This document shows, one piece after another, positions 1,887 through 36,399 of a DNA stretch of 36,557 nucleotides. Position numbers and translations under genes: made by a program. Source of the stretch: a bacterium (GTDB taxonomy: Bacteria; Patescibacteriota; Minisyncoccia; Phycocordibacterales; GWA1-40-21); the NCBI GenBank assembly GCA_037147155.1, contig JBAWVR010000003.1, positions 1 to 36,557 of the forward strand. The letters are read 5' to 3'. The number at the start of each line of letters is the position of its first letter. The first letter of the stretch is position 1. The notes under the pieces were generated by a model, which saw only the letters and a list, made by a program, of their open reading frames with translations, searched no databases and was not told the origin of the DNA.

Positions 1887-2534
1887 TTATAAACCTCTAA
1901 TTACTGCGGTCGTACCAAAATCTCCGGTCTTAGTACCAGAAGTCAAAGACATTTTCACAGTCACAGCATTAGTAGAAGTACCAACCGGTCGATATATTTC
2001 AAAACTATTTACTGCCACACCAGGCAAAGTGAGTGCCCCCTGATCAACACCATCTTTCTTCAACTTTAACACTGAACTGTCGAGGTAGAAATCATAGTTG
2101 GTATTTGAACCGTCAGTGTTTTTTGAGTCCAAATACAAACGGCTGGAGGAAGTTCCAAACACACTATTAGCAATATTGATACTGGAAGCCTGACGGGTTT
2201 CAAAAGAAATACGATTGAGAACTGAGACAGCTGAGTTGGTCAGATTTTTTCTCTGAGCCAATTCTTGGTATGATTTGGATAAATAAACTAGAGAGCTAGT
2301 GATGGCCATAACCAAAACAATAAAGATAGCGAGATAGACTAGCATTTCAATCAGAGTGAACCCCGCAGTAGACTTCTGCCTTTGGTCGGTATTGATGTTG
2401 ATTTGGTTAACCATTACTTTTTTCCAATTATTTGCCTTTAATTTTACCACAAATAACACCCGACCTATTAGACAGAAGGCAGAAGTCACTAGCTGGGCAG
2501 GCCCAGTAGTGAGCTTTTGGTTTTTAGTTATCAT
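1887..2534 (-). CDS. Type IV prepilin-like protein (PilW/PulJ-like) with in-frame palindromic insert in its leader
   Basis: G|FTLIEMLVYLAIF N-methylation motif, preceded by a 45-aa segment shared with ORF 3018-3626. Confidence 0.85.
   Translation of the reverse strand: MITKNQKLTTGPAQLVTSAFCLIGRVLFVVKLKANNWKKVMVNQININTDQRQKSTAGFTLIEMLVYLAIFIVLVMAITSSLVYLSKSYQELAQRKNLTNSAVSVLNRISFETRQASSINIANSVFGTSSSRLYLDSKNTDGSNTNYDFYLDSSVLKLKKDGVDQGALTLPGVAVNSFEIYRPVGTSTNAVTVKMSLTSGTKTGDFGTTAVIRGL
2361..2497 (+). mobile_element. Coding palindromic element (family A subtype) inside a prepilin leader, copy 1
   Basis: CCCCGCAGTAGACTTCTGCCTT...AAGGCAGAAGTCACTAGCTGGG; ungapped match to 3465-3601. Confidence 0.85.
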
Positions 2535-3012
2535 AAATATTACTTAAATAAGTGGAGATGCTTTTGGAAGTGGTAACACCTTGTTCCGACCAGGACACCA
2601 TGACTTTTATTTTTTTAATATTTGAATCAACTGCGCCTCCTGCGGCAATAATATCACCAGTCGAACCATCGCGCTTAACATCATAAAAATTAACCGTTCT
2701 AGTAAAACCATCGTCAATCACTGGACTGGTCACAAAAGACCAAACTCGAGAAGTAGTAGCAAAGGATAAATAGTAGGTTGTAGAAGTACTCTTGGTTAAA
2801 ATATTAGTATTCCAGCTAGAATCGCGATTAAAGCGTACCACCTCCAAACCCTCCTCGGTCATAAATGACGCTTTGGCCAAATTGGCAGTTCTCGTCTCCA
2901 TAGTTATAAAAAAACCGTAAGCATTCATAATGGCCACAAAAGCCACAGCGATAATAGCGGCACCAATCAGCACCTCCACCAAGCTCACACCTTTTTTAAA
3001 ATAACTAATCAT
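2524..3012 (-). CDS. Type IV prepilin-like protein (PilV/PulI-like)
   Basis: KKG|VSLVEVLIG motif with short leader; C-terminal KKIKVMVSW. Confidence 0.85.
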   Translation of the reverse strand: MISYFKKGVSLVEVLIGAAIIAVAFVAIMNAYGFFITMETRTANLAKASFMTEEGLEVVRFNRDSSWNTNILTKSTSTTYYLSFATTSRVWSFVTSPVIDDGFTRTVNFYDVKRDGSTGDIIAAGGAVDSNIKKIKVMVSWSEQGVTTSKSISTYLSNIYDN

Positions 3013-3017
3013 TTTTA

Positions 3018-3626
3018 TTAACGAGATATCAAACCGGTCCCTTTTATTTCAATCGTTTTATATTTTGTGGCATCACCAATCATACTAACTCGAAAGGTAC
3101 CATAATTATCTGTCGCGCCGGTCAGTTTTTTGAAAATCACTGTATCAGCACTACCTGCAAAGGAAAAATTTGTTAGAGCAAAATCTGATGAATCAGAAAG
3201 TAATAGTGTCTTATTGCTAGCACTGCCTTCAACGTAAGTTGGCGCCGGAAAAACCACTATTTTATTACTAAAAAACTTGACCCCGTAATTCAGTCCAGCT
3301 AAAGTTGTTGCTGAATTTGCCTTGACTTCCTCCAGGGTGATAGCAATCATGGAGGCCTCTTTTTCTAAACCTTTGGTTTTTTGTCCACCAAGAAAATAAT
3401 AACCAGCTAATGTTGATAAAACACCGATTATACAAATTACCACAAGCAACTCGACCAACGTGAACCCAGCAGTAGACTTCTGCCTTTGGTCGGTATTGAT
3501 GTTGATTTGGTTGACCATTACTTTTTCCCAGTTATTTGCCTTTAGTTTTGCCACAGCAAATATCCGACCTATTAGATAGAAGGCAGAAGTCACTAGCTGG
3601 GCAAATCCATAATTAATATTTTTCAT
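3018..3626 (-). CDS. Type IV prepilin-like protein (FimT/GspH-like) with in-frame palindromic insert in its leader
   Basis: G|FTLVELLVVICIIGVL motif; leader reads MKNINYGF-[45 aa]-GFTL. Confidence 0.85.
   Translation of the reverse strand: MKNINYGFAQLVTSAFYLIGRIFAVAKLKANNWEKVMVNQININTDQRQKSTAGFTLVELLVVICIIGVLSTLAGYYFLGGQKTKGLEKEASMIAITLEEVKANSATTLAGLNYGVKFFSNKIVVFPAPTYVEGSASNKTLLLSDSSDFALTNFSFAGSADTVIFKKLTGATDNYGTFRVSMIGDATKYKTIEIKGTGLISR
3465..3601 (+). mobile_element. Coding palindromic element (family A subtype) inside a prepilin leader, copy 2
   Basis: CCCAGCAGTAGACTTCTGCCTT...AAGGCAGAAGTCACTAGCTGGG. Confidence 0.85.
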
Positions 3627-3633
3627 ATTTAAA

Positions 3634-4866
3634 TTATACCGTATCCATTAAAGAATAAATCGGCAAAATCATGGAAACTGCAAAGAAACCTACAGCTATA
3701 CCAATAAACACCATAAGCACAGGTTCGATGATTGTCGACATGTCTTTGGTTTTTTGTTCTACTTCGGATTCATAATAAGCAGCCACACCCATGAGCATCT
3801 CAGGCATTTTACCAGTCTCCTCACCCACACTCATCATCTCCCCCACAAAAACTGGATAGAGATTTTCGTATTTTGTAAAAATTGACGACACGGTGATACC
3901 CTTACCAACATTTTCATAAGCTTCAGCAATAACCGCTCGATAGTAACTATTCTGTACCACTTCACCAGTAATCTGGATAGCTTCGGCGATCGGTACACCA
4001 GAAGTAATAAGCGAGGACAGAGTGCGGGCTGTGCGGGCCGAGTTGGTTTCTTTGACCAATTCTCCAATAACCGGCAAACGCAAGATGGTAAATTCAAACC
4101 AACGTTGACCGCGTGGGGTTTTATAAAAATAATATAAAGAACCGCCAACAAGTAAAAACAAAAATAAAACCAAAAGAAAATTATGTTGAAAGGCATTGCT
4201 TGCAAAAATAATCAACTTGGTGCTCATTGGTAACTCGACTTTCATTTCTGTAAAAGTTCCAGTGATACTTGGAACAACAAACACAAGCATTAGCACTGCC
4301 ACAATACCAATCACACACAAAATAATTCCAGGATAAATCATGGCGCCTTTGATTTTCTTTTGCAGACGGTTAGTGTTGTCCATTTGTAAGGCCACAATTC
4401 TAAGAGATTCCGACAAGCCACCAGACTCTTCACCGGCCTTGGTCATAGATACAAATAAATTGGAAAAAACCTCAGGATATAATTTCATCGCAGTACTCAA
4501 ACTTTTACCCTGACTAATTTCAGAGTTCAAACTGGCAATAATTTCTTTAAACTTTTTATTATGGATTTGCTTCTCCAATACCATAAGAGCTCGAGACAAG
4601 GATAAACCAGCGCTAATCATAGCTCCCAAATTGCGAGCAAACATAATTTTATCCTGAGCAGAAACATGACCAATGAGACCAGCAAACCAAGCATTGGCTT
4701 TTTTTACCAAACTATCACTCTCTTCATGTTCTTTTTCCTCAATAAAAATAACCGTATCTCCACGGGTTTTAATTTCTTTAAATAGAGCTGGGCGGTCGAG
4801 CACATCCAAATCACCTTCATAAGAAGTGCCATCAGTTTTCATCGCCTTAAAATGAAACAAAGCCAT
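3634..4866 (-). CDS. pilC: Type IV pilus inner-membrane platform protein PilC (GspF family)
   Basis: AGEESGGL, AMIYP, GEETGKM and IEPVLM motifs of two GspF domains; start set to MALFHFKA (4866) because the longer ORF overlaps the divergent gene. Confidence 0.92.
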   Translation of the reverse strand: MALFHFKAMKTDGTSYEGDLDVLDRPALFKEIKTRGDTVIFIEEKEHEESDSLVKKANAWFAGLIGHVSAQDKIMFARNLGAMISAGLSLSRALMVLEKQIHNKKFKEIIASLNSEISQGKSLSTAMKLYPEVFSNLFVSMTKAGEESGGLSESLRIVALQMDNTNRLQKKIKGAMIYPGIILCVIGIVAVLMLVFVVPSITGTFTEMKVELPMSTKLIIFASNAFQHNFLLVLFLFLLVGGSLYYFYKTPRGQRWFEFTILRLPVIGELVKETNSARTARTLSSLITSGVPIAEAIQITGEVVQNSYYRAVIAEAYENVGKGITVSSIFTKYENLYPVFVGEMMSVGEETGKMPEMLMGVAAYYESEVEQKTKDMSTIIEPVLMVFIGIAVGFFAVSMILPIYSLMDTV

Positions 4867-4953
4867 AACTAGTCTATATTTTAACACAAAATTTTCCACA
4901 AAACCAAAGAATTTGGAGAATGAACAAGCTTTTGCTATGATTTGTTTATAATT

Positions 4954-6012
4954 ATGAGAAAAATCTTTCAACATTCATTTAGACTCGCTGTTATTATCTT
5001 TGCTATTCTCGGACTAGGCTTCGTCTCAGTCTATTTTGCTGTTAAATACGGCCTAACCAATACCAAAGGTATTATTGATCAACAAAATGAGGCTTTTTGG
5101 CAAAGTGCCGAAAGTGACACTGTAGTCAACAAAAAACTTTTGACCGAAGAAAAACTGTGCAAGTTAAATGTTATAAAGAAAAAGTTTCCAATGGAGGCAA
5201 AGAGATTGGCTAAAATGTTATTGGGAAACCTAGGTGAAACAGCTGACAAAGCGATTAGTAATTCTCTTTTGGTGATTGAACCAAATAATAATACTTGCGC
5301 AAGTAAAAACAACTTGGCCAATGCTTCAGCTTTCAATGATATTGCCAATTACATTGAGAAGACTAGTCCTTATGCTTGGGTTAACAGCCAAGAATGGGAA
5401 ACTTTTAGAGACGCAGTTAGCCGCGATCAGGATGTATTAAAGCAAGTAGAAAAAGAGACCGGAATTAAGTCACGTTTATTGGTAGCTGAGCTCATGGCTG
5501 AGCAACTACGTTTATTCTATTCCGAGCGAGACTTATTCGAAAGAGTTTTTGCTCCAATTAAAATTCTCGGTAGTCAAACTCAATTTTCTTGGGGTATTAT
5601 GGGATTAAAGCCTGACACGGCCATTGCAATTGAGAGGAATTTGAAAGATGCCACTTCCCCATTTTACCTTGGCACTCAACACCAAAACACTTTGAACTTC
5701 AAAACTTCTGATATTGATCAGGAAAGATTCGAAAGAATCACGGATGAACACAATCATTATTATGCTTATTTATATTCCGCAATTTACAATCTTCAAATTA
5801 TTAATCAGTGGAAAAAAAGTAATGTCGATATTTCCAATCGCCCAGAGATTCTTGCCACCTTATACAATATTGGTTTTGCCAACTCTACACCAAAAGCTGA
5901 CCCACAGATTGGCGGAGCGGAACTAGACATTGCGGGACAGACTTATAGTTTTGGTCGCTTAGCCAATGAATTCTACTATTCTGACGAGCTGACTGATTTG
6001 TTTCCGTATTAA
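4954..6012 (+). CDS. Membrane-anchored protein with possible lysozyme-like (transglycosylase-like) C-terminal domain
   Basis: N-terminal TM helix; LLVAELMAEQ, SWGIMGL and ATLYNIG resemble SLT motifs I-III. Confidence 0.5.
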   Translation: MRKIFQHSFRLAVIIFAILGLGFVSVYFAVKYGLTNTKGIIDQQNEAFWQSAESDTVVNKKLLTEEKLCKLNVIKKKFPMEAKRLAKMLLGNLGETADKAISNSLLVIEPNNNTCASKNNLANASAFNDIANYIEKTSPYAWVNSQEWETFRDAVSRDQDVLKQVEKETGIKSRLLVAELMAEQLRLFYSERDLFERVFAPIKILGSQTQFSWGIMGLKPDTAIAIERNLKDATSPFYLGTQHQNTLNFKTSDIDQERFERITDEHNHYYAYLYSAIYNLQIINQWKKSNVDISNRPEILATLYNIGFANSTPKADPQIGGAELDIAGQTYSFGRLANEFYYSDELTDLFPY

Positions 6013-6063: not shown

Positions 6064-7839
6064 TTAATCCTGAATTTTTAGATTATTTACCAACCCGTCC
6101 AAATCTCTTGTTTTTAACACTCCGCCAAAATTCTCATTATCCGTAGCACCAACTTTCCTCAAAATCAGTGTTTTATTGTCTGGCAATGGAAAAGCATAAA
6201 TTGTAATCTGCTTATCTGCAGAATCATCGCCCACTCTCATACAATCATAACCCTGATATTTTATAAAACCATCACCATAACCAATAATATTGGCATTAGT
6301 AACATAAGTCTCGAAATCTAAGTCGCTAACCACCACATTTAATCCACCTTCCTCAAAAACTGAGCAAGATTTATCTGCACCTATGGTTTTTCCGGCGCAG
6401 GTTTCATTCTTATTTACCCGGTCAGCCCAAACTTTTGGAACAATGTCGACCGAAGCCAGAGTAACAACTTCTGGCTGAATATCTTTATTATTTTCGCTTA
6501 CCCCATTAATCACAACAAAATCTTTTGGGTAATCGAAAGAAAAACCAAAACGATCACTACCATATGTTCCCTCTGGTATTGAATTAGCAGCTGATTTTTG
6601 TGAGATAACATTTGAGCTATTTTTTAATGATTCGTATATCAACTTTGTCGCATTAATAAGGACTGGTTCGGTACTTTTAGTGTACGTGACCATATCGCTC
6701 TTTCCTCCCCCGTAACAGGCTGTGGCACCGCTAACGTCCGTGCAGGCAGAAATCATTTTACCTCCTATGGAAATAAAATCCTTTGATGTTATAGGGACCT
6801 CATTGGCATAAATTGCGATACCAGAAACATAAGACGGTCCAGTTGCACCCAGGGTGTCCTTAACTTGTCTGACTATCCAATTTTGGGGATGTTTAAAAGA
6901 TATCATCAACTGTGAATCAGTATATGTTGTCCAGTCAGCAGTCTGGTTAGTTATGGCGGCTGCGGGTTTTTTGATAAAAGAATCAATAATCTTTTCTCCA
7001 ATCTTAAACTCTTCCGTCGCATTTTTTACACTATTGGGTACCTCTATATTCCACCAAGACTGGGCTGGTTTTTCAGAACTACCAAAATCAGCATGGTGTG
7101 TTATAGCAACACCACCAGGAGAATTTAAGCCATCACTAGACGACCAAAACATGATTCTGTAGCTAACATTAGTCCCCTTAAAACCTTCTAGATCGTTACG
7201 GGCAGGACTTTCAATTGTCACTGAAGGATATCTTTCTGTAATAATTGTTTTACTACTATCAACCACTTTCCATTCAGCTGGATACTTGAATTCGAAGCCG
7301 TATTCATCATTTACATATGCTTTCCAACCATCTGATAATTTTTTTGAACTAAATTTTAGAGAATCTATAATCTCTTGTTCAATTTTTTTATACTCGGCAC
7401 TTGATGCCGCTAAAGTTACTTTTATCGATTGATCTTTATAACAAATATCTTTGTATTCAAGTAGACCATATCCGACTGTCCAATCGGAATCAATACAATT
7501 TATATCTTTATTTACCGCCACACTATCTCTTGGATCACCCGTATCCGGTCTAGGTTTTTGTTTTGTATCAACAATTCTGATTTTGTTGTTATCTAAATTT
7601 TCTACCATCCAATCTGCAGGGTGTTTGATAACTAGACCATAATTTGTGTTCTCAACTGATAACCATCCAGGATATTTTTCTTCAGTAAGTTGCTGACCAT
7701 TTGCTGAAATTTTGGCTCTTTCTATTTGTTTTGTTTTTAAATACAACCCGCCCCAAACGATTAGAGCAATGGCACAAATAATTAATAAAATTGCTATTGT
7801 TAATTTTGAACCTTTATTTGTCTGTGTGTTTTCTTCCAT
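6064..7839 (-). CDS. Membrane-anchored surface protein with four PsbP-like (W..Y.N..YGF.F.YP..W) modules
   Basis: TM helix followed by YGLVIKHPADW, YGFEFKYPAEW, LMISFKHPQNW and FGFSFDYPKDF; start MEENTQ lies 6 nt after TATAAT. Confidence 0.7.
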   Translation of the reverse strand: MEENTQTNKGSKLTIAILLIICAIALIVWGGLYLKTKQIERAKISANGQQLTEEKYPGWLSVENTNYGLVIKHPADWMVENLDNNKIRIVDTKQKPRPDTGDPRDSVAVNKDINCIDSDWTVGYGLLEYKDICYKDQSIKVTLAASSAEYKKIEQEIIDSLKFSSKKLSDGWKAYVNDEYGFEFKYPAEWKVVDSSKTIITERYPSVTIESPARNDLEGFKGTNVSYRIMFWSSSDGLNSPGGVAITHHADFGSSEKPAQSWWNIEVPNSVKNATEEFKIGEKIIDSFIKKPAAAITNQTADWTTYTDSQLMISFKHPQNWIVRQVKDTLGATGPSYVSGIAIYANEVPITSKDFISIGGKMISACTDVSGATACYGGGKSDMVTYTKSTEPVLINATKLIYESLKNSSNVISQKSAANSIPEGTYGSDRFGFSFDYPKDFVVINGVSENNKDIQPEVVTLASVDIVPKVWADRVNKNETCAGKTIGADKSCSVFEEGGLNVVVSDLDFETYVTNANIIGYGDGFIKYQGYDCMRVGDDSADKQITIYAFPLPDNKTLILRKVGATDNENFGGVLKTRDLDGLVNNLKIQD

Positions 7840-7845
7840 GTAAAA

Positions 7846-7885
7846 ATTATACCACGAAAAATGAAATACTAATTTCATCTCGTGG
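7846..7885 (-). promoter_or_regulatory. Family D hairpin fused to an extended -10 (TGGTATAAT)
   Basis: CCACGAGATGAAATTAGTATTTCATTTTTCGTGGTATAAT, near-identical to 14514-14553. Confidence 0.7.
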
Positions 7886-7889
7886 CAAG

Positions 7890-10982: not shown

Positions 10983-11123
10983 CCCGGTTGTGAGCTTTGG
11001 CATCGTTTTTGAAAATTGTGCTTTGTAATTAAACTAAATGTCTAATTAGCAAAACAGACTCTGATGTAATATCAGAGTCTGTTTTGGGCAAAAACAATTT
11101 TAATGCCAAAGTCTACAACGGGG
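10983..11123 (-). mobile_element. Palindromic MITE-like element, family A copy 1
   Basis: Ends CCCGGTTGTGAGCTTTGGC / GCCAAAGTCTACAACGGGG; internal hairpin CAGACTCTGAT-ATCAGAGTCTG; abuts the fusA TAA. Confidence 0.75.
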
Positions 11124-13375: not shown

Positions 13376-13516
13376 CCCGGTTGTGAGATTTGGCGTCGTT
13401 TTTGAAATTGCGTTTAATTACCGTTTTTAATTATCAAATTAGCAAAACAGGTTTTAGCACTAAACTGCATTACATTTTAAACAAAAACAATTTCAACGCC
13501 AAATTCTACAACGGGG
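13376..13516 (-). mobile_element. Palindromic MITE-like element, family A copy 2
   Basis: CCCGGTTGTGAGATTTGGCGT...ACGCCAAATTCTACAACGGGG; 141 bp; shares ATTAGCAAAACAG and CAAAAACAATTT with copy 1. Confidence 0.75.
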
Positions 13517-13521
13517 TCAAT

Positions 13522-13650
13522 CCCGTTGTAGACTTTGCCATCAAAATATGAATTTTATCCAGGTTTGTGTATGATCTTTTTTTATAGCCAGGACGCAGTT
13601 TGCACAATTAGTCAGTTTTCGAAGAAAACAATGGCAAAGCTCACAACCGG
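13522..13650 (+). mobile_element. Palindromic MITE-like element, family A copy 3 (inverted relative to copy 2)
   Basis: CCCGTTGTAGACTTTGCCAT...ATGGCAAAGCTCACAACCGG; divergent interior. Confidence 0.7.
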
Positions 13651-13771
13651 ACAAAGGAGTTGGGGCGGGCCTGGATGGTCGAACCTTCCCAGGCTCGCCC
13701 TTGCATTTTCCTAGTTTAGTTCTAGACTGATTGTAAGTGTTCTTTTCTCAAAACTAACCAGGAGGTCCACA

Positions 13772-14362: not shown

Positions 14363-14547
14363 TACGAGATGAGCCCTCGAATTTCTTGCCCCGCGATTAA
14401 ATTCGCGTGCCCAGAGATGAAATTAATATTTCATTTTTCTGGGAATTTAATTTTACGGAAGCCTGCCCCGCGATGAAAATTATTTATTTTCATTTTGCGG
14501 GGTTCATGGCTTGCCACGAGATGAAATTCTGATTTCATTTTTCGTGG
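14363..14547 (+). repeat. Cluster of about 5 related short hairpins (family D), one nested inside another
   Basis: Units of the form stem-G-ATGAAA...TTTCAT-TTT-stem at 14410-14443, 14466-14502 and 14514-14547; outer unit 14391-14458; degenerate unit 14363-14388. Confidence 0.75.
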
Positions 14548-14559
14548 TATAATTTCCCC

Positions 14560-15045
14560 ATGGATAAAATAAAAATTAATGAAGTGGTAGAAGTATACTT
14601 CAAAGCTATGCTAGCTGGGTATTTTGGCGAAAAAAGCGGAGAAGTAACAATTGAAAAAATAAATAATAAGAAAACTCTGACATATAAAGATGGTAATTTT
14701 ATAGTAGTCGACAGCTACACCGACAATTTTGGCACAACTGAAATATCTTGGCGCGGTAATACTGTGTGGATGATGTTCTACTATGGTCATTACTCGACTG
14801 AGGCTATACCACATCTAATAGCTGCTCTCAAACCTCAATTAGAAAATAAAATTTGGCTTGGCGGACGTGGACCAAAACTTGTTGAGATGGGTAAATATTT
14901 CTATGAAAACATAGTGGAGGCTAATGACCCAATGGAGTTCCGTGGTATGGAATCAATCACCTCCCTCGGACTCGACGACAAACCAGTGGTTATTGGTTAT
15001 CATCGATATTGCGGCAAGGCGGTGGAAGAATTTATGGAGAGATAA
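14560..15045 (+). CDS. DUF5680-like hypothetical protein (paralog of 13772-14302)
   Basis: DSY..GTTEI..VWMMFYYG..GGRGP..FYEN..FRGMESI..YCG; N-terminus FKAMLAGY parallels LQAMLCFY. Confidence 0.65.
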   Translation: MDKIKINEVVEVYFKAMLAGYFGEKSGEVTIEKINNKKTLTYKDGNFIVVDSYTDNFGTTEISWRGNTVWMMFYYGHYSTEAIPHLIAALKPQLENKIWLGGRGPKLVEMGKYFYENIVEANDPMEFRGMESITSLGLDDKPVVIGYHRYCGKAVEEFMER

Positions 15046-15574: not shown

Positions 15575-15587
15575 ATATTTTTCTTTA

Positions 15588-15673
15588 CCCGTTAAAGTTT
15601 TGGCTGACACATTAAGCATCTTGCTTAATGTCTGGAAAATCTATGATTTTCTATCAGTCAAAATTTTCTCGGG
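15588..15673. repeat. 86-bp structured repeat (family C) in the rpsL-rpsG spacer
   Basis: One mismatch to 17368-17453; CCCG...CGGG ends, an outer stem and two internal hairpins. Confidence 0.9.
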
Positions 15674-15684
15674 TGAATTAATAA

Positions 15685-16101
15685 TTATTTAGCTGCCTTT
15701 GGTCTCTTTGTACCATATTGACTGCGACCTTTTCGGCGACTCTCAACACCAGTAGCGTCGAGAACACCACGAACGATTGTGTAACGCAAACCAACATCCT
15801 TAACACGACCACCACGGAGTACTACTACGGAGTGTTCCTGCAAGTTGTGTCCCATTCCTGGGATATAAGCGGTAACTTCCAAGCCGTTAGACAACTTCAC
15901 ACGAGCGATTTTACGCACAGCGGAGTTAGGCTTCTTTGGTGTCTTGGTAGTAACTTTTGTACAAACTCCACGCTTAAATGGAGAAGCATAAAACTTCGGA
16001 CGGTTCTGAATCGTATTGAATCCACGCATCAAAGCCACCGCTTTGGTCTTGCGAGGTGTAGTCTTACGATTTCTTTTAACTAATTGATTAACTGTAGGCA
16101 T
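15685..16101 (-). CDS. rpsL: 30S ribosomal protein S12
   Basis: [25 protein letters not shown] and RGGRVKD. Confidence 0.99.
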
Positions 16102-17355: not shown

Positions 17356-17367
17356 AAAATTTGTTTA

Positions 17368-17453
17368 CCCGTTAAAGTTTTGGCTGACACATTAAGCATC
17401 TTGCTTAATGTCTGGAAAATCTATGATTTTCTATCAGTCAAAATTTTTTCGGG
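17368..17453. repeat. 86-bp structured repeat (family C) in the 5' leader of the response regulator
   Basis: Near-identical direct repeat of 15588-15673; lies between a TATAAT (about 17476-17481, minus strand) and the ATG. Confidence 0.9.
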
Positions 17454-17504
17454 ATTATTATTATCTATACGTATATTATACCCCACCAGAGACTTTTAAC
17501 CAAA

Positions 17505-18516: not shown

Positions 18517-18655
18517 CCCCGTTGTAGAATTTGGCGTCGAAATTGTTTTTGACGCGACAGACTCTGGTGAAATACCAGGGTCTGTTTTGTTATATTTTTC
18601 GTGATTATTAAAAAACGTCAATTTCAGAAAAACAACGCCAAATCTCACAACTGGG
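18517..18655 (+). mobile_element. Palindromic MITE-like element, family A copy 4
   Basis: CCCCGTTGTAGAATTTGGCGT...ACGCCAAATCTCACAACTGGG; abuts the rpmB TAA; internal hairpin CAGACTCTGGT-ACCAGGGTCTG. Confidence 0.75.
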
Positions 18656-21914: not shown

Positions 21915-22652
21915 TTACACTCCCCACTCTTTCTTAATCGCGTCCTCATCATCAGTACTCAAAGACTTGCGATACTTGGCACCCTTGGTACCTTTGACCC
22001 TAGCTTCACACTCAGCCCAAGTCTGATCTATATGAAACTGTCCATTAACCAAAGATAGATAAGAGTAAGCCTTGGCACCCGAGCGACTCTTGGCTTTAGC
22101 CAATTCTTCACGCACATTAATATCATGCACATCCACTGAATAATCTTTTTTCAAACCAGAAAATAATTTTGGCGGACGGCCAAAAGTAAAAGCTGTGGCA
22201 ATCTCGTCCACTCTTTCATTGCCCGGAATACCGGAGTGACCACTAACTTTTTGCCAGACAATCTTTTTACCATGGGCGTGTTTAGCTAGACCTTCCCACA
22301 ATTCGCGATTGGACACATCTTTCTTATCAATAGTTTGCCAACCTCGTGCCATCCAACCATAAACCCATTTAGTAATACCATTGATCACATAGGCCGAGTC
22401 AGTATGAATCACAATTTCTTTATCGGTGGCACCAATTTCTTTCAAAGCTTCTAGAGCGGCAGTAATCTCCATGCGATTGTTGGTTGTATGTTTATCACTA
22501 GCGCCTTTTTCCACAACTTCATTGGTGCGACTACCTTTAGGGAAAACTACCACAGCTCCCCAACCTCCAGGACCAGGATTACCAGAAGACGAACCGTCAC
22601 AAAAAACGATTATTTTATTCTCTACCATTTTATTTTTATATTCTTTTTCCAT
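21915..22652 (-). CDS. rnhA: Ribonuclease HI with C-terminal viroplasmin-like hybrid-binding domain
   Basis: CDGSSSGNPGPGGWG, TTNNRMEI, TDS and GHSGIPGNERVD; C-terminal TWAECEARVKG..AKYRK; start MEKEYK 7 nt after TATAAT. Confidence 0.9.
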   Translation of the reverse strand: MEKEYKNKMVENKIIVFCDGSSSGNPGPGGWGAVVVFPKGSRTNEVVEKGASDKHTTNNRMEITAALEALKEIGATDKEIVIHTDSAYVINGITKWVYGWMARGWQTIDKKDVSNRELWEGLAKHAHGKKIVWQKVSGHSGIPGNERVDEIATAFTFGRPPKLFSGLKKDYSVDVHDINVREELAKAKSRSGAKAYSYLSLVNGQFHIDQTWAECEARVKGTKGAKYRKSLSTDDEDAIKKEWGV

Positions 22653-22659
22653 TGCGTGA

Positions 22660-22695
22660 ATTATAGCACGAAAAATTCGAGGACTCATCTCGTGC
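22660..22695 (-). promoter_or_regulatory. Family D hairpin fused to an extended -10 (TGCTATAAT) upstream of rnhA
   Basis: GCACGAGATGAGTCCTCGAATTTTTCGTGCTATAAT, 7 nt before the ATG. Confidence 0.65.
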
Positions 22696-22766
22696 CTAGC
22701 CATGAACTGAAAAAAAACAAAACACCGCATCTCCTCCGAGATGCGGGTTGCCAAGTGGATGATTCC

Positions 22767-29267: not shown

Positions 29268-30422
29268 TTAATCTATAATAATACTATTTCGTACACACTT
29301 ACTTCCCGCTCGAGAATAAGTATAGGTGGTATCAGCCGGCTTACAAGTCCAATCACAAGCCTTTAAATCAACATCGCTAGTAGAAACTGGCACGAAGGTC
29401 CAATTCTTGTCTGTAGCACTAATAGGTAATTTATCACTCAGAATTCTAACGTAGCCAGTTGGGGCCGAACCAAGACAAGACTTTGTTGTTGCTCCACCAG
29501 TAGTTCCACCGGTTGTTCCACCACCAGTCGTACCACCTCCACCAACGGGGATATCCACACAGTTATTACCAACTTTTTCTTGTCCCGCACCACAAATAAC
29601 AATGTTGGCACAACCATTACCCACAACCTCTTGTCCGTCAGGACAAACTCTTACACATTCACCATTAACCAATTCTGCCCCTTCAGGACAAACACATTGG
29701 CCATTATTATTTACTAATCCTTCCCCACAGGCCGCACAATAGCTTCCAGTATCACTAGGAATTATTTTATCACCAGCACAACAATCACCATTATCATCGC
29801 GCGCTTCGTTATTTCCACAACTACCGCCAGGATTGTTGGTGGTGGTATTCATAAAATCAATCCAACCAACAATACTACCACCCCAGGCATAACCAAGAAG
29901 ATGATTATTGGTTCCACTTTTTACTCCATAACTACTTTTTCCATCAATAGTTTTACCGGCTAGAGAAATCCAACCATCCCAACCATCAGTTCGGGAAACT
30001 GTGCCACATCCACCATCGATACTACCAGCACAGGCTCTGGCCCAACCAGAAAGATTCTGATTTGAGTCAATTTGGGCAGTACATGTTCCGTCTGGACAAC
30101 CAGTCAATTTTGTAGAGTCGAAAGTTATCCAACCAATGTTGTCAGACCAAACATATCCACACAATTCTCTAGATATAGCATTGTCTGTGGCAGACTTTTT
30201 CACCCCAATACCGTATTCTCCTTGGTTCTCACCTAAATGTATCCAGCCAATAGTATCAGACCAAGCATAACCCCCCAGGCGTCCTGTTAGGACACCACTG
30301 CAACCGGGCAAGTTAGTATCAGCTTCGACACTATTTATTCTCACAGAACTCAAAAACCCACCGGCAAAGATGGATATAATCAGGAGAAAAAATGTAGTTA
30401 GAAAGATTTTTTTATTTTTCAT
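29268..30422 (-). CDS. Secreted GYxWSDxIGWI-repeat protein with Cys-rich repeats
   Basis: Signal peptide; GYAWSDTIGWI, GWDGWISL and C-x-C-P-x-G repeats; short paralog of 31819-36399. Confidence 0.8.
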   Translation of the reverse strand: MKNKKIFLTTFFLLIISIFAGGFLSSVRINSVEADTNLPGCSGVLTGRLGGYAWSDTIGWIHLGENQGEYGIGVKKSATDNAISRELCGYVWSDNIGWITFDSTKLTGCPDGTCTAQIDSNQNLSGWARACAGSIDGGCGTVSRTDGWDGWISLAGKTIDGKSSYGVKSGTNNHLLGYAWGGSIVGWIDFMNTTTNNPGGSCGNNEARDDNGDCCAGDKIIPSDTGSYCAACGEGLVNNNGQCVCPEGAELVNGECVRVCPDGQEVVGNGCANIVICGAGQEKVGNNCVDIPVGGGGTTGGGTTGGTTGGATTKSCLGSAPTGYVRILSDKLPISATDKNWTFVPVSTSDVDLKACDWTCKPADTTYTYSRAGSKCVRNSIIID

Positions 30423-31818: not shown

Positions 31819-34800
31819 TTAATCTAGAATAATAGTGTTTTTGAAACAGCGGTTACCACCACGAGAGTAAATATTCTTGGAATTTGCAGCTTTACATGTC
31901 CACTCGCAAACCTTTAAATCCTTACTTCTAGTCTTGACGGGCATAAATGACCAGACTAGCTTTGTGCTTGGAGTAACCAAAGCTTTATTAACACTTGATG
32001 CTCCGGAACGAACATAGCCATAAGGTCTAACTCCACCACAATATTGAATTGTTTTATCAGTTACACACTTTCCATCAGCATTTTCAGTCTGCCCAATCGG
32101 ACAACCTTGAACACAAACACCCAAGAGTTCAGCTCGCCCTTCTGGACAATCCGCCACACACTGACCACTGTTCTCCACTTCAGTTAATGAACAATTATCA
32201 ACACAGTCTGTACCATCAGAGGATTCTACCTGCCCTTCTGGACAATCTTTAACACATCTACCATCGATTGGAATATCTCCTTCATTACACTGATCCTGAC
32301 AAACGCCATCTGACTCAATCTTATCACCGCAATCCATAACACATTGTCCAGCTACATCTTTATAACCTGGATCACAATCTAGATTACACATTCCATTAGC
32401 TTCGTCTTTGGTATATCCATTTGGACAATCAATGAGACATTCGTCCATGAAATTGTACTCATTCTCCTGACAGATCTTCTTGCATTCTCCATCAACTGAT
32501 TCGTAACCATCTAAACAACCAGCGATACATTCTTGATTAAATTCAACCTCTGGCGGGGTACAAGTATTTTTACAAATACCATTGTCATCAACTTCACCTC
32601 CACCACAACCATCCTGACAAATTCCATCTACATTCACTTGCCAATCAGCACAAATATTCGTACATTCACCATATGATTCTACCTGTCCATCTGAACACTG
32701 TAGAGCACAGTGCGCTGGTGGAGGAATCTCGGACTGAATTTGACCTTCCGGACAATCCAAAACACACTGTCCACCATCTGCCTTGTAACCCAAACCACAG
32801 TCTTTGACACAGATTCCATCTGATTCAACATAGCCCACAGCGCAATCCAAAACACATTCATTACCAAAATCTTTGTATCCCTGTAAACAATCCAATACGC
32901 ACTGACCATCACCATTATCTTTGTATCCTTCTCCACAATCTATTAAATCTATTACGCATTGACCGTTCTTCTCTATTTTGCCTTCATCACAAATAATCAC
33001 ACACTCCCCGGCTACTTCTCTGTATTGTGATGGACACTCCGGAACACAAACACCAGCCAACTTTACTAAGCCATCTGAACACACATCTGTACAAATACCA
33101 TCTTGAGCTACCTGACCATCTGTACATCCATCTTTACACTCACCATTTGACTCAACCATCCCCAATGGACAGCTCGTGGTGATACACTGGCCGCTAAAAT
33201 CTACGGTGCCATCTGGACAAACAGTTCGACATTCATTTTCAAACAACACCTCTCCTTCCCGACAGACATCCACACACACCCCAGTTGTTGATTTGACTTT
33301 ACCCAAAGCTTCACAATCCGGTACACAAATATTAAATTCCATTTTTTCATTAGCAGGACATTCACATACACCATTCACGGCTTCTGATCCACCTAAACAG
33401 CTTGGAACACAAGTACCTTGATAAGTCACTTTACCCAATTGTTCACAAGTTATAATACTAATACACTGACTATCATAATATGTCATGTCCTCCGGACAGA
33501 CGGTGACACATTGTCCAGCCACATCTTCCTTGCCATCTGGACACAAACACTGTCCGTCTACCTCCACTTTTTCCCCTGCACAAACCTGGCAGTAGGTATT
33601 TCTGATTGTTTGACCCAAGAGACCAGTTGTAATAGTTGTAACCAGCTTATTATTTTCTAGTGTGGCCGGACAACAAATACCATTATCATCTTTTACTTCT
33701 CCATTCGCACAGGTAGCAAAATCTATCTTGACATCAAAGAAATCCAGCCATCCCAAAACATCACTACCCCAAGCAAAACCCGTGAGAGCGTCACCTGACA
33801 GTCCAGATATGCCATATTTTTCGCGGGCTGTAGTTGTACCTGATAGAGAAATCCAACCATCCCAACCACCATTGAGTGAACCTTTTAAGCTTGCTGGATC
33901 AGTGATAGTTCTTACTACTGTGGTAGTTACTGGTGTTCCACCAATATCAACTAGAGTGTAAGTTGAAACATTGGTTGGAACATTTATTGTACTAGTTGAG
34001 GTCACTGGTTTAGAAACATATATTTTACCTCCGTAAACAACTGCAGTCAGAATACTACCGTTGTCCGATACGGCCACAGAACGCCACACCCTGGCAACAT
34101 CGCTTGTCCTTGGATACCAGTAATCACCAGTACTTGTAGACATATATAGATATCCACCACTAACCACAGCAGCCTGTATCGAGCCGCCAGCAGACATTGC
34201 TACACCCTGCCAGTCTAAATTAGGAGTTTTTTGGTACCAATTTGTACCAGAATTCTTTGTTGTATATATTTTAGACGGAGTCAGGCCAGTAAAACCTGCA
34301 ACCAAATCTGGATCACTACCAGCAACAACCGTTCTAACAGTACCATTACTGGACATAGAGGTATTTACTTTATAACCATAAGGAACTCCTCTGTAACCAC
34401 TAACCCAACCAGCCCCTTTATCAATATCCCAAGTACCAACCACAGATTTAATCAAGCCATTTTGAGTAATATAAGTGTCATAAAAACCAGTGCAACCAGG
34501 ACCACTTTCGGATAAAAAAGTTTTGCCATAATTTGTAGAATAATAAACACAACCGGTACCCATGTCTCCATAATAATTATTTTCTGAAAACATTTGTTTA
34601 CTACCATCAGCAGACATCGCCGCCGATGTCCACATTGAACCCGCTAAATTTTTACTAACATTCACCCAGGTGTTGCCCGAGGTTGTTGAAACAAAAACCC
34701 CATCCCAACCAGCAGCCAGTTGATATGTACCTGTTGCAGATACAGCAATCGAACGCCAGCCACGGTTTACATCGGTCATTTTCCCTGTCCAAGAATCACC

Positions 34801-36399
34801 AGAATCGTTTGATTCGTAAATATAACCACCTTTTTCAACTGCCGCTTGCATTACACCATCACGTGAAACTGCAACATCAACCCAGTTTCTATTCTTGTCT
34901 GTCGCTTTCTCTAACCAATTGTCTCCGTACCCACCAGTAGTAGTCGTGACTGTTTGAGGAACATTAACCACAGTGGTACTAGTCTCTATTCTCTTATTTG
35001 GAGAAATCGAAGTATAAATTGTGCCGTTTTCTTGAACCGCAGTCATAACTGAGCCATCAGCGGAAACTGCTACACCAGTCCAACCACCAGCTGGTGCTGT
35101 TTTTTTCTCCCAATACAAACCGGTGCTTGTGGAAACATATATTCTGCCCTCGCCTGGTTGAGTCGCTGTGTCTCCCCAAGACACTGCCACCTGCACACTG
35201 CCATCAGCAGTCATGTCCACATCTGTCCAACTCATTTGTGCGTACTGAGAGCCAAGTTGTGTCCACTTACTTCCAGTAGTGGTTGATATATATATCGTTC
35301 CCTCAGCCATAAGACCAGTTAGTATCGAACCATCTGCGGATGACTGCATAACATTGAAATTATCGAAATTCCTGAAACTAGTATTGACCGTCGGCCAAGA
35401 GCCATTGGTTAAACCATGATTTATTGATATACCCAAAAAACCATCACCACCAGCATCGACGGCCATAAATTCTTTACTGCCATCTGAGGTAATAGCCACA
35501 CCACGTGGATCTGCGCCCATATCATAAACTGTCCAGCTCGCGCCATAAGTTTGCGATACGCCAGCCAGAGCCGAATCACTGATAGCTACCTGATATTGCC
35601 CACTGTTGGACATAACAACTTTTTTCCAACTAGCTCCACATCCTGTACAGCCAGTGGCCGTCCAAGTATTGCCATAGTCCGAAGAAGTGTAGATCGAACC
35701 GCCATTCACCACTGCCGTTTGATATTTTCCATCTGTAGATGGATCAGTTGACATGGCCACACTGGTCCACATACGATTAGTAGAAGTTGCTGTCCAAGTC
35801 TCTCCATAATCCTTGGATAAATAAATTTTGCCACCATTAACAACCGCCGTTTGGAGTTTTCCATCCGAGGACATGGCTACACCAGACCAATTTCTATTAA
35901 CAGTCGTCTTTTGTACCCAAGTATCCCCCGCTGGTTTAGTAACATATGTCGTCACGGTTGAAGTAGATAGAATTTTTCCACTACCAGTATATTCCCCGCA
36001 CATGCCATCAGTACTACCCGCACAAGCTCTGGCCCAACCAGAAATATTTTTATTAGACATGCCATCGATTTTGGCTGTACATTCACCAGCAGGACAATTA
36101 TTTAAATCCAGGGCATTAAAAGATACCCAGCCGATATTATCTGCCCAGCCATAACCACAGAGATTTTTGTCAGATTTTATACCCACACCATAAGTACCCT
36201 CATTTTCTCCAAGACTAATCCAGCCAATATTGTCAGACCAGATATAGCCACTGAGGCGACCGATCAAACTATCACTACAACCTGGCAAATTGGTATCAGC
36301 TGTCACTTTTTCTATTTTGAAATCACGAAAAGAACTTCCAGCAAAAATAGCTGCAATTAAAAGAAGAAAGGTAAAAAGAAAAAGTTTTTTATTTTTCAT
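31819..36399 (-). CDS. Giant secreted protein: GWI-repeat domain, two beta-propeller-like (W..VA.S.DG / S.D.G.TW) blocks, long Cys-rich repeat stalk and conserved C-terminal domain
   Basis: 1526-aa ORF with all motifs directly visible. Confidence 0.85.
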   Translation of the reverse strand: MKNKKLFLFTFLLLIAAIFAGSSFRDFKIEKVTADTNLPGCSDSLIGRLSGYIWSDNIGWISLGENEGTYGVGIKSDKNLCGYGWADNIGWVSFNALDLNNCPAGECTAKIDGMSNKNISGWARACAGSTDGMCGEYTGSGKILSTSTVTTYVTKPAGDTWVQKTTVNRNWSGVAMSSDGKLQTAVVNGGKIYLSKDYGETWTATSTNRMWTSVAMSTDPSTDGKYQTAVVNGGSIYTSSDYGNTWTATGCTGCGASWKKVVMSNSGQYQVAISDSALAGVSQTYGASWTVYDMGADPRGVAITSDGSKEFMAVDAGGDGFLGISINHGLTNGSWPTVNTSFRNFDNFNVMQSSADGSILTGLMAEGTIYISTTTGSKWTQLGSQYAQMSWTDVDMTADGSVQVAVSWGDTATQPGEGRIYVSTSTGLYWEKKTAPAGGWTGVAVSADGSVMTAVQENGTIYTSISPNKRIETSTTVVNVPQTVTTTTGGYGDNWLEKATDKNRNWVDVAVSRDGVMQAAVEKGGYIYESNDSGDSWTGKMTDVNRGWRSIAVSATGTYQLAAGWDGVFVSTTSGNTWVNVSKNLAGSMWTSAAMSADGSKQMFSENNYYGDMGTGCVYYSTNYGKTFLSESGPGCTGFYDTYITQNGLIKSVVGTWDIDKGAGWVSGYRGVPYGYKVNTSMSSNGTVRTVVAGSDPDLVAGFTGLTPSKIYTTKNSGTNWYQKTPNLDWQGVAMSAGGSIQAAVVSGGYLYMSTSTGDYWYPRTSDVARVWRSVAVSDNGSILTAVVYGGKIYVSKPVTSTSTINVPTNVSTYTLVDIGGTPVTTTVVRTITDPASLKGSLNGGWDGWISLSGTTTAREKYGISGLSGDALTGFAWGSDVLGWLDFFDVKIDFATCANGEVKDDNGICCPATLENNKLVTTITTGLLGQTIRNTYCQVCAGEKVEVDGQCLCPDGKEDVAGQCVTVCPEDMTYYDSQCISIITCEQLGKVTYQGTCVPSCLGGSEAVNGVCECPANEKMEFNICVPDCEALGKVKSTTGVCVDVCREGEVLFENECRTVCPDGTVDFSGQCITTSCPLGMVESNGECKDGCTDGQVAQDGICTDVCSDGLVKLAGVCVPECPSQYREVAGECVIICDEGKIEKNGQCVIDLIDCGEGYKDNGDGQCVLDCLQGYKDFGNECVLDCAVGYVESDGICVKDCGLGYKADGGQCVLDCPEGQIQSEIPPPAHCALQCSDGQVESYGECTNICADWQVNVDGICQDGCGGGEVDDNGICKNTCTPPEVEFNQECIAGCLDGYESVDGECKKICQENEYNFMDECLIDCPNGYTKDEANGMCNLDCDPGYKDVAGQCVMDCGDKIESDGVCQDQCNEGDIPIDGRCVKDCPEGQVESSDGTDCVDNCSLTEVENSGQCVADCPEGRAELLGVCVQGCPIGQTENADGKCVTDKTIQYCGGVRPYGYVRSGASSVNKALVTPSTKLVWSFMPVKTRSKDLKVCEWTCKAANSKNIYSRGGNRCFKNTIILD

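Follow-up and report, generated by a model that had tools for sequence, protein, structure and literature searches.

The leader of the minor pilin-like gene at 1887-2534 appears to have been entered twice by mobile DNA at the same codon position. A 141-nt palindromic element (family B; 2361-2501, minus strand) is inserted in frame in this leader, and the 19-mer adjoining it on the upstream side (2502-2520, minus strand; codons 6-11, Q-K-L-T-T-G) is a candidate solo right-terminal repeat, or scar, because of its likeness to the ends of other elements in the same genome. The reading that we favour, with a probability of roughly 60 per cent, is that the 19-mer is what is left of an earlier hairpin element, and that the family B element re-inserted at the site which the earlier one had rebuilt. 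The earlier element would have been a member of the superfamily to which families A and B belong. The evidence for the scar is contained in 15-27 nt.

The window (the whole stretch of DNA analysed, 36,557 nucleotides) is contig C3 of an 876 kb genome (39.5% G+C, 90 contigs, 98.85% complete), and the sequencing runs that contain it are lake and freshwater metagenomes, no RNA run being listed among them. Its minus strand carries a type IV pilus operon headed by pilC (T2SSF, 3634-4974), which is followed by pilin-like genes at 3018-3626, 2524-3012 and 1887-2534. The product of the last of these has 215 amino acids (mature part 157) and is 34% identical to its orthologue in G001, a genome of the same genus. 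The native ATG of the gene (2532-2534, minus strand) lies within the final codons of the pilin gene upstream, whose stop is at 2524-2526, and the same overlap of ATG and stop is present in the G001 orthologue. Since the C-terminus of the product of this middle gene (2524-3012, minus strand), which is itself free of inserts, is conserved in G001, there is no spare DNA upstream of the 19-mer.

The product of gene 1887-2534 starts with M-I-T-K-N-Q-K-L-T-T-G, continues with 47 residues that are not pilin-like, and then reaches F-T-L-I-E and a hydrophobic helix. The Pfam N-terminal methylation motif (PF07963) covers residues 55-78 of P0001 and 51-74 of P0003; in the product of gene 1887-2534 only the second Gly-Phe is part of the motif (residues 55-78). 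The protein thus has a Gly at -1, a methylation motif with Glu at +5 and a hydrophobic helix, as type IV prepilins do. A prepilin peptidase (Peptidase_A24 and its N-terminal domain) is encoded at C31:46-786 and pilC lies in the window, so assembly genes are present. Judged from the sequence, the leader probably comprises 58 residues and should be cut by this peptidase at Gly58|Phe59, the first Gly probably being left uncut because Pro comes next.

The family B element, with inverted ends that start at 2497 and 2361, supplies 47 codons between Gly11 and Phe59; the last of them read Q-K-S-T-A-G, by which the cleavage site is rebuilt. A second copy (3465-3605, minus strand), found by repeat comparison, lies in gene 3018-3626 between M-K-N-I-N-Y-G and F-T-L-V-E; the two copies match at 85% over 181 nt (repeat D1) and at 92% over 144 nt. 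The genome has five copies, each located in a pilin-like gene directly before Gly|Phe, and in all five no stop interrupts the frame between the native ATG and the end of the insert, so that the host reading frame is preserved. They occupy three loci: two copies are in the operon of the window, one is after the major pilin on contig C5, and two are on contig C31 in a four-pilin operon downstream of the prepilin peptidase gene. The predicted fold is a long hairpin closed by both ends (z -4.56). Between subfamilies the right arm varies synonymously and Q-R-Q-K-S-T-A-G is kept, whereas residues of the left arm change while complementarity stays, which indicates that the inverted repeat and not the peptide of the left arm is conserved. 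Over its length family B is homologous to three non-coding copies of a family C, which contain stops in that frame.

A four-base spacer (2498-2501, minus strand), encoding Pro and the first base of Ala, separates the left inverted repeat from the native Gly codon. In the alignment of the five family B copies the spacer has the pattern pyrimidine-pyrimidine-T-G, and the residue after the native Gly is Phe in one copy (3465-3605), Leu in one and Pro in three, followed by Ala. The spacer is probably the decayed copy of a duplicated Phe codon, as far as the alignment allows one to say, and such decay may also disarm the first, decoy Gly-Phe. The left spacer of family B does not match its right flank.

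That the 141-nt element is a true insertion follows from the empty orthologous sites in G001. This genome has no family A or family B match; it has both pilin operons with the same gene order and short classical leaders, and four of the five family B positions are empty in it. Its pilC-operon leaders are M-N-K-N-K-K-N-K-N-G|F-T-L-I-E and M-N-K-T-K-K-R-L-K-K-G-G|Y-T-L-V-E (the pilins being 36% and 34% identical to the window proteins), and those of its peptidase operon M-I-K-P-F-Y-K-K-I-K-K-A-G|F-T-L-I-E and M-I-K-K-L-K-S-K-N-K-G|F-A-I-L-F. A search of 60 other genomes for family B DNA gave only weak matches of 19-36 nt in seven of them and none in G001 or G002. In G002, where family A is present (12 matches), the family B sites are likewise empty, and two pilin leaders contain different palindromic inserts, one of them of the NTS type as this is described in the account consulted (PMC11893778). 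Similar hairpins occupy Gly|Phe(-Thr) codons in Saccharibacteria and Paceibacteria (see below). Taken with the five family B copies, these inserts bear out the proposal, made in an earlier note on this DNA, that one pilin site is targeted repeatedly, and recurrent use of the Gly|Phe codon position is well supported.

A metagenome scan for closer relatives gave 23 loci with at most 46% identity, in which mainly the N-terminal helix was matched. In the contigs of four runs, whose patchy cover cannot show absence, no joint, indel or other letter at this place was listed, and there was no sign of an insert-free allele, with the same restriction. One 229-nt contig, from run X4 of another study, spans 2333-2561 with zero differences.

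The ends with which the 19-mer is compared are those of a larger group of repeats. Family A is represented in the window by an intergenic reference copy that has inverted ends and contains a terminator-like hairpin (10983-11123, plus strand), by a further copy found in the repeat search (18517-18655, minus strand) and by two copies placed end to end, 4-5 nt apart (13376-13651, plus strand), which set a precedent, within the window, for renewed insertion where an element already lay. The 876-kb genome has 24 near full-length family A matches in addition to end-only matches, and solo and mini derivatives of elements are present. Families A and B are short and multicopy, have terminal inverted repeats and contain no transposase gene, as is the case with MITE-like elements, and the ends of the two families are alike. 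Of the 61 genomes searched (G000 included), three had family A. Its flanks are AT-rich and not end-like, with 3-4 nt repeated as judged by eye.

A full-length copy of 330 nt on contig C1 carries, between family A-type ends, a 93-aa GIY-YIG open reading frame (PF01541, 56.9 bits). The only solved relative detected by sequence was 1ZG2, an UPF0213 protein (E 7.5e-6), and NCBIfam gave no match for this reading frame. This single-domain nuclease, enclosed by family A-type inverted ends, is probably the driver of the elements.

Four bases separate the 19-mer from the left inverted repeat of the insert, outside which it lies. The earlier note's description of it is correct: on the coding (minus) strand of the reading frame 1887-2534 bases 2502-2520 read Q-K-L-T-T-G, deletion of the 47 codons at 2361-2501 leaves M-I-T-K-N-Q-K-L-T-T-G|F-T-L-I-E, the family A end at 10983 has the sequence given there, and the likeness between the two is real (15/18). 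Within the window the likeness stands out: with the 18-mer 10983-11000 as query, five sites in the window had at most three mismatches where 0.03 were expected (100 shuffles), namely four true family A ends and 2502-2519, the latter with three mismatches. Across the genome (1.75 Mb of strand) 23 sites were at an edit distance of exactly 3 from six end variants, and about 12 of these were judged by eye to be unrelated sequence. Against the raw genome background the match is therefore uncommon, though other sites equal it. The resemblance is above background, in the right orientation and abuts the insertion point.

The closest end is not that of family A proper but a variant that contig C21 has in one arm of a mini-hairpin of 31 nt (14/15), and that also occurs in the pilin-leader hairpins of other CPR classes. 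Compared with the right ends of the pilin-leader hairpin family found in other genomes, the first 11 bases of the 19-mer are identical to loci L142 and L250, after which a T-run follows. A relative from its own genome, such as the C21 type, is the more likely direct parent, rather than the K-F-T-T-G family of other CPR bacteria, because the exact K-F/L-T-T-G|FT junction pattern occurred in none of the 401 sampled genomes of the class to which the window belongs.

Since leaders are constrained sequences, rich in Lys and ending in Gly, the ends of leaders were compared like with like. For every leader the 15 nt ending with the Gly codon were scored against 15 element ends of the host genome, picked by coordinates. 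The leader with the 19-mer scored 14/15, or 13/15 (against a family A variant) when the C21 mini-hairpin was left out, whereas the maximum among 178 leaders from other genomes was 11/15. The comparison set consisted of 124 leaders from 30 or more genomes of the same family and 54 from two genomes of the same genus and unrelated metagenome contigs; leaders of related genomes are non-independent samples, and the data had already been seen when the end variants were selected. Not one of the 178 leaders ended in K-L-T-T-G, and a single one ended in T-T-G.

Two further native leaders of the host genome behaved similarly, so that three out of ten native leader ends scored at least 12/15, as opposed to 0/178 elsewhere. 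The leader at C31:2694 (M-K-K-Q-N-I-K-K-N-M-S-A-A-G), which carries a family B element, matches the right end of family B at 13/15 and exceeds the orthologous leaders of G001 and G002 by 3-4 residues. The element-free leader at C31:1522 ends in K-L-T-A-G (12/15), where the orthologues in both genomes end in K-N-N-R-G. GGG closes six of the ten native leader ends here, compared with 16/124 in the family, and makes up 7.9% of Gly codons genome-wide.

The principal alternative is that the leader is native and no earlier element ever existed, the likeness being due to Lys and Gly codons, to small residues that suit the peptidase, and to chance. The start codon, the gene overlap and the leader length are much the same as in the element-free G001 (11 amino acids here, 12 there, with K-L opposite R-L). 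Given K-L-T-T-G and the codon usage of the genome, a score of at least 13/15 is reached with a probability of 0.106, which places the signal mainly at the level of residues, together with the rare GGG codon, and makes convergence on a good peptidase site possible. The roughly 12 unrelated genomic sites that are as near to family A ends as the 19-mer, and the K-L-T-T-G leader at L174, which uses other codons, also speak for a native origin. But such an origin would have to account for the fact that none of the 178 other leaders reached 12/15 or ended in K-L-T-T-G, and that one element-rich genome has three end-like leaders among ten and over-uses GGG at their ends. The mature protein of G001 is only 34% identical, too distant for the leader alignment to carry much weight either way. 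On balance we think it unlikely that the leader is simply native, although this alternative fares best of those considered.

It could also be that the family B insertion itself shaped or chose its flank, either because the element spread among pilin paralogues, by recombination or homing, together with some flanking sequence or because its nuclease prefers end-like targets; the end-like leader would then be a by-product or a target. The last base of the spacer is G in all five family B copies, where a fresh Phe-Thr duplication would give A, and GGG stands before the spacer in four of the five, which is odd for five independent canonical insertions; moreover, the end of the leader is a near inverted copy of the left arm of family B. 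Against this, three of the five leaders that bear family B are not end-like (7-9/15), the 19-mer is nearer to another end type (14/15) than to the ends of family B (at most 10-13/15), the flanks of family A are AT-rich and unlike ends, and the paralogues have no extended identity downstream of the junction as seen by eye. Such shaping or choice of the flank is therefore improbable, more so than a native leader. Gene conversion from a family B paralogue into the element-free leaders appears unlikely, since the same visual comparison gave no extended identity past the junction.

A functional nucleic-acid structure, in which the end of the leader would pair with the element in a regulatory RNA or DNA hairpin, for example as a translational switch or a bypass signal, is very improbable. 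The element does fold as a long hairpin (z -4.56), and compensatory changes preserve the pairing of its arms from one subfamily to the next even though left-arm residues vary, but complementary arms are expected of inverted terminal repeats anyway, the predicted fold gives the 19-mer only a 5-bp local stem that is unpaired with the element, Rfam gave no matches in the window at gathering scores, and in the second copy a ribosome would take off from one codon and land on a different one. In known cases of ribosomal bypassing a stop follows the take-off codon. Bypassing across the insert was rejected, as the second copy has unlike Gly codons and the first Gly is not followed by a stop.

Two more explanations were discarded. 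A long target duplication comprising the leader end does not agree with the five family B copies, whose leaders differ but whose right ends are almost identical and belong to the inverted repeat. An ancient, conserved long leader does not agree with residues 1-75 being matched by the window's own two proteins only (2 of 12 candidates), the relatives lacking the family B leader.

Further information on how such ends behave came from a survey of species-representative genomes for K-[L/F]-T-T-G-F-T-[L/F] in any codons, which gave at least 121 matches. Among the 121 matches listed, 12 were at a prepilin N-terminus, and ten of these were K-F-T-T-G|FT, nine of the ten having one codon set in which only the third base of the second Thr varied. 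The hosts of the K-F-T-T-G|FT leaders among the matches listed were Saccharibacteria, Paceibacteria, other Patescibacteria MAGs and one Desulfobacterales MAG. In seven of the ten K-F-T-T-G leaders listed, an inverted partner arm was found within 160 nt, 7-97 nt upstream. The seven intact elements listed are hairpins of 45-140 nt placed after the native Gly, and six of them have a 4-nt duplication consisting of the Phe codon and one base (T-T-Y-A). The intact elements read G-F-T-Q-L-V-D-F-G ... P-K-F-T-T-G|F-T-L, in the same frame as family B with its G-P/F-A-Q-L-V.

Two other loci, L173 and L200, have the element codons while the partner arm is absent, and are thus solo ends; at L200 a leader of ordinary length ends in the last five codons of the element. 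Other codons are used by L201 (K-F-T-T-G), by L164 and L174 (K-L-T-T-G; L174 is a gammaproteobacterial pilin) and by a K-L-A-T-G leader in G002. The prediction that pilin leaders of the form K(L/S)TTG|FT are element scars was therefore borne out in part: a class of solo ends exists (two of the nine with fixed codons), but the codons of K-L-T-T-G, K-L-T-A-G and K-L-A-T-G leaders are free. Fixation of the codons to the element terminus, which had been suggested as a check, was likewise seen in nine of the ten K-F-T-T-G leaders among the matches listed but not in the leader studied here, for which the synonymous-codon test was not significant (0.106).

If the 19-mer is a scar, the events may be pictured as follows. 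A first element would have entered the prepilin motif at its Gly|Phe-Thr codons; read in frame, the outer end of this element encodes K-x-T-T/A-G and so would have rebuilt the peptidase site before F-T-L-I-E. Left arm and body would then have been lost in an in-frame deletion that also took part of the native leader; a palindrome is unstable, the leader is rich in Lys and A, and only the codons needed before the mature N-terminus would have been kept. Finally, the 141-nt family B element would have hit the rebuilt Gly|Phe-Thr, and its K-S-T-A-G end would have rebuilt the site once more. The scar would have no function of its own today beyond forming part of the 58-residue leader.

The deletion step is demanded by the comparison with G001. 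As the length of the leader and the overlap of ATG and stop are those of G001, the older element must have lost both its body and part of the native leader, in frame, and this loss is a possible but extra event. The proposal of the earlier note, that an older element ended at the same Gly and decayed before the next one inserted, is upheld in that the later insertion is real, the site is reused and the 19-mer is end-like; it is weakened in that the 19-mer is accompanied by neither the left arm nor the body of an older element, the partner arm being absent, and in that the nearest end is not that of family A proper.

Several of these features have parallels in known systems. The MITEs of bacteria, among them Correia, ERIC, BOX and RUP, are short, non-autonomous elements with inverted ends and short target duplications, present in many copies, patchily distributed among relatives and provided with internal terminator- or promoter-like parts. 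Families A and B differ from them in that a transposase of a known IS family is lacking and that a coding-adapted subfamily is open in five of five copies. Solo terminal relics and nested or tandem insertions are also known from transposable elements, where a lone terminal repeat can outlast the body and have a younger copy beside it, but unlike the usual solo relics the 19-mer is inside an open reading frame and specifies residues beside a proteolytic processing site.

The Rickettsia palindromic elements (RPEs) are described, in the part of the source consulted, as repeats of about 150 bp, of several families, which lie in frame in genes of reduced genomes and are translated (PMC10969869, where the four MITEs named above are listed too). 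Family B is like them by this description, being a palindromic repeat inserted in frame, without stop and with the host reading frame preserved. It is unlike them in being confined to the Gly|Phe-Thr codons of prepilins, in having an end that rebuilds a processing site, and in that the insert is expected to leave with the cleaved leader.

A resemblance of another kind is to the Ssn system, in which, according to the sections consulted, a gene for a single-domain GIY-YIG protein of about 94 aa lies between inverted, dispersed hairpin repeats (NTS/SRM; Chenal et al. 2025, PMC11893778), an architecture that the authors themselves note to be insertion-sequence-like (PMC11893778). The 93-aa GIY-YIG reading frame flanked by dispersed family A-type ends has a layout (repeat-nuclease-repeat) like the one in those sections, but the repeats here are of 140-155 nt with inverted ends of 20-36 nt, unlike the 28-nt hairpins of Ssn given there. 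Site-specific cleavage of single-stranded DNA and mobility are putative for the C1 reading frame, the likeness being one of layout. In-frame residence in pilin leaders, seen here, is absent from the Ssn account in the portion consulted (PMC11893778). In the literature searched, to which subscription journals and supplements did not belong, in-frame palindromic or MITE insertions in prepilin leaders were not found described. The new details for which evidence is presented are serial insertion at one site with a scar, and element ends that become residues beside a cleavage site.

As a tentative generalization, which may well prove too broad, the prepilin leader of CPR bacteria could be a renewable landing pad: the ends of the GIY-YIG-associated hairpin elements encode a working peptidase site, so each insertion would recreate its target, elements would pile up, decay and be replaced, the residues beside the cleavage site of many pilins would in time cease to be native, and K-F/L/S-T-T/A-G leaders would be the fossil ends of selfish DNA. 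Should the 19-mer indeed be a scar, selfish DNA turns over in the leader and leaves codons behind in a processing signal of the host, which would make it a small but clear example of exaptation where genomes are very compact. End-like codons could then mark past element activity. The link to the 93-aa GIY-YIG reading frame offers a testable system for the movement and targeting of Ssn-like nucleases and repeats, questions left open in the part of the account consulted (PMC11893778).

Leaders that bear elements mislead gene callers and signal-peptide predictors through their long N-terminal extensions and decoy Gly-Phe motifs. The family B element contains, in addition, an internal ATG (Met41; 2412-2414, minus strand) that is kept in all five copies and, if used as a start, would give a leader of 18 amino acids encoded entirely by the element.

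Insertion into an already used site is seen at window 13376-13651, where two copies of family A, the dispersed hairpin element with inverted ends, lie end to end. The 4-5 nt that separate them equal the duplication flanking the first copy, and the pair represents a site that was entered by a second insertion. A full-length element was found in the same genome (contig C1, 40763-41089), in which inverted ends of the family A type enclose a 93-aa GIY-YIG ORF (L061:1438-1719; PF01541, 56.9 bits). Contigs C28, C5 and C1 of this genome bear three further small ORFs of the GIY-YIG type. Contig C21 has a 31-nt mini-hairpin made up of two element ends (C21:10301-10331; L007:1502-1532). Its host site is the 5' portion of a tRNA gene that is present as a duplicate, directly upstream of an intact tRNA-Leu(CAG) gene (L007:1337-1421).

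In the five copies of family B, the in-frame relative carried in pilin leaders, the first, native Gly is followed by Pro in three cases, by Leu in one and by Phe in one (window 2499-2501, 3603-3605 and three others). Other genomes carry a related pilin-leader family in which the native Gly is itself often replaced by Ala or Thr (loci L161, L187 and L209). Both kinds of change would disarm the decoy cleavage site, i.e. the native Gly that precedes the insert. An in-frame ATG located 18 codons ahead of the cleavage site is kept in all five family B copies (window 2412-2414 and the equivalent places), so that a start codon and leader could come from the element itself, a candidate role for this internal ATG.

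Pilin leaders also harbor other palindromic inserts. In the same-genus sister genome G002, two pilin genes (L058:746-1474 and L050:3-1571, minus strand) carry different palindromic repeats, in frame in the leader and a few residues ahead of Gly|Phe; one of the two is of the NTS type, the hairpin repeat of the Ssn nuclease paper. Long in-frame extensions resembling translated palindromic repeats were found in the pilin leaders of three metagenome or MAG loci (L073, L164 and L072), and that of L164 has an NTS-like hairpin upstream of K-L-T-T-G|F-T-L-I-E.

Pilin-borne family B is homologous over its whole length to the non-coding family C (C22:12196-12332, C34:1704-1840 and C15:4098-4235). All three family C copies are followed by a -35-like hexamer, and the one on C34 adjoins an NTS-like palindrome.

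The window contains further repeats. A palindromic unit with promoter-like hexamers recurs at 7830-7889, 14405-14572 and 22641-22722 (repeat families D5, I1, I4, I6 and I8), with three tandem occurrences at 14405-14550 and inverted copies elsewhere. The 109-nt direct repeat D3 (15580-15688 and 17360-17468, 93% identity) has its copies 1.8 kb apart. An ORF of 1526 aa (31819-36399, minus strand) contains numerous short internal repeats rich in Cys codons, and ORFs at 29268-30422 have these repeats as well (D2, D4, D6, D7, D12 and D14).
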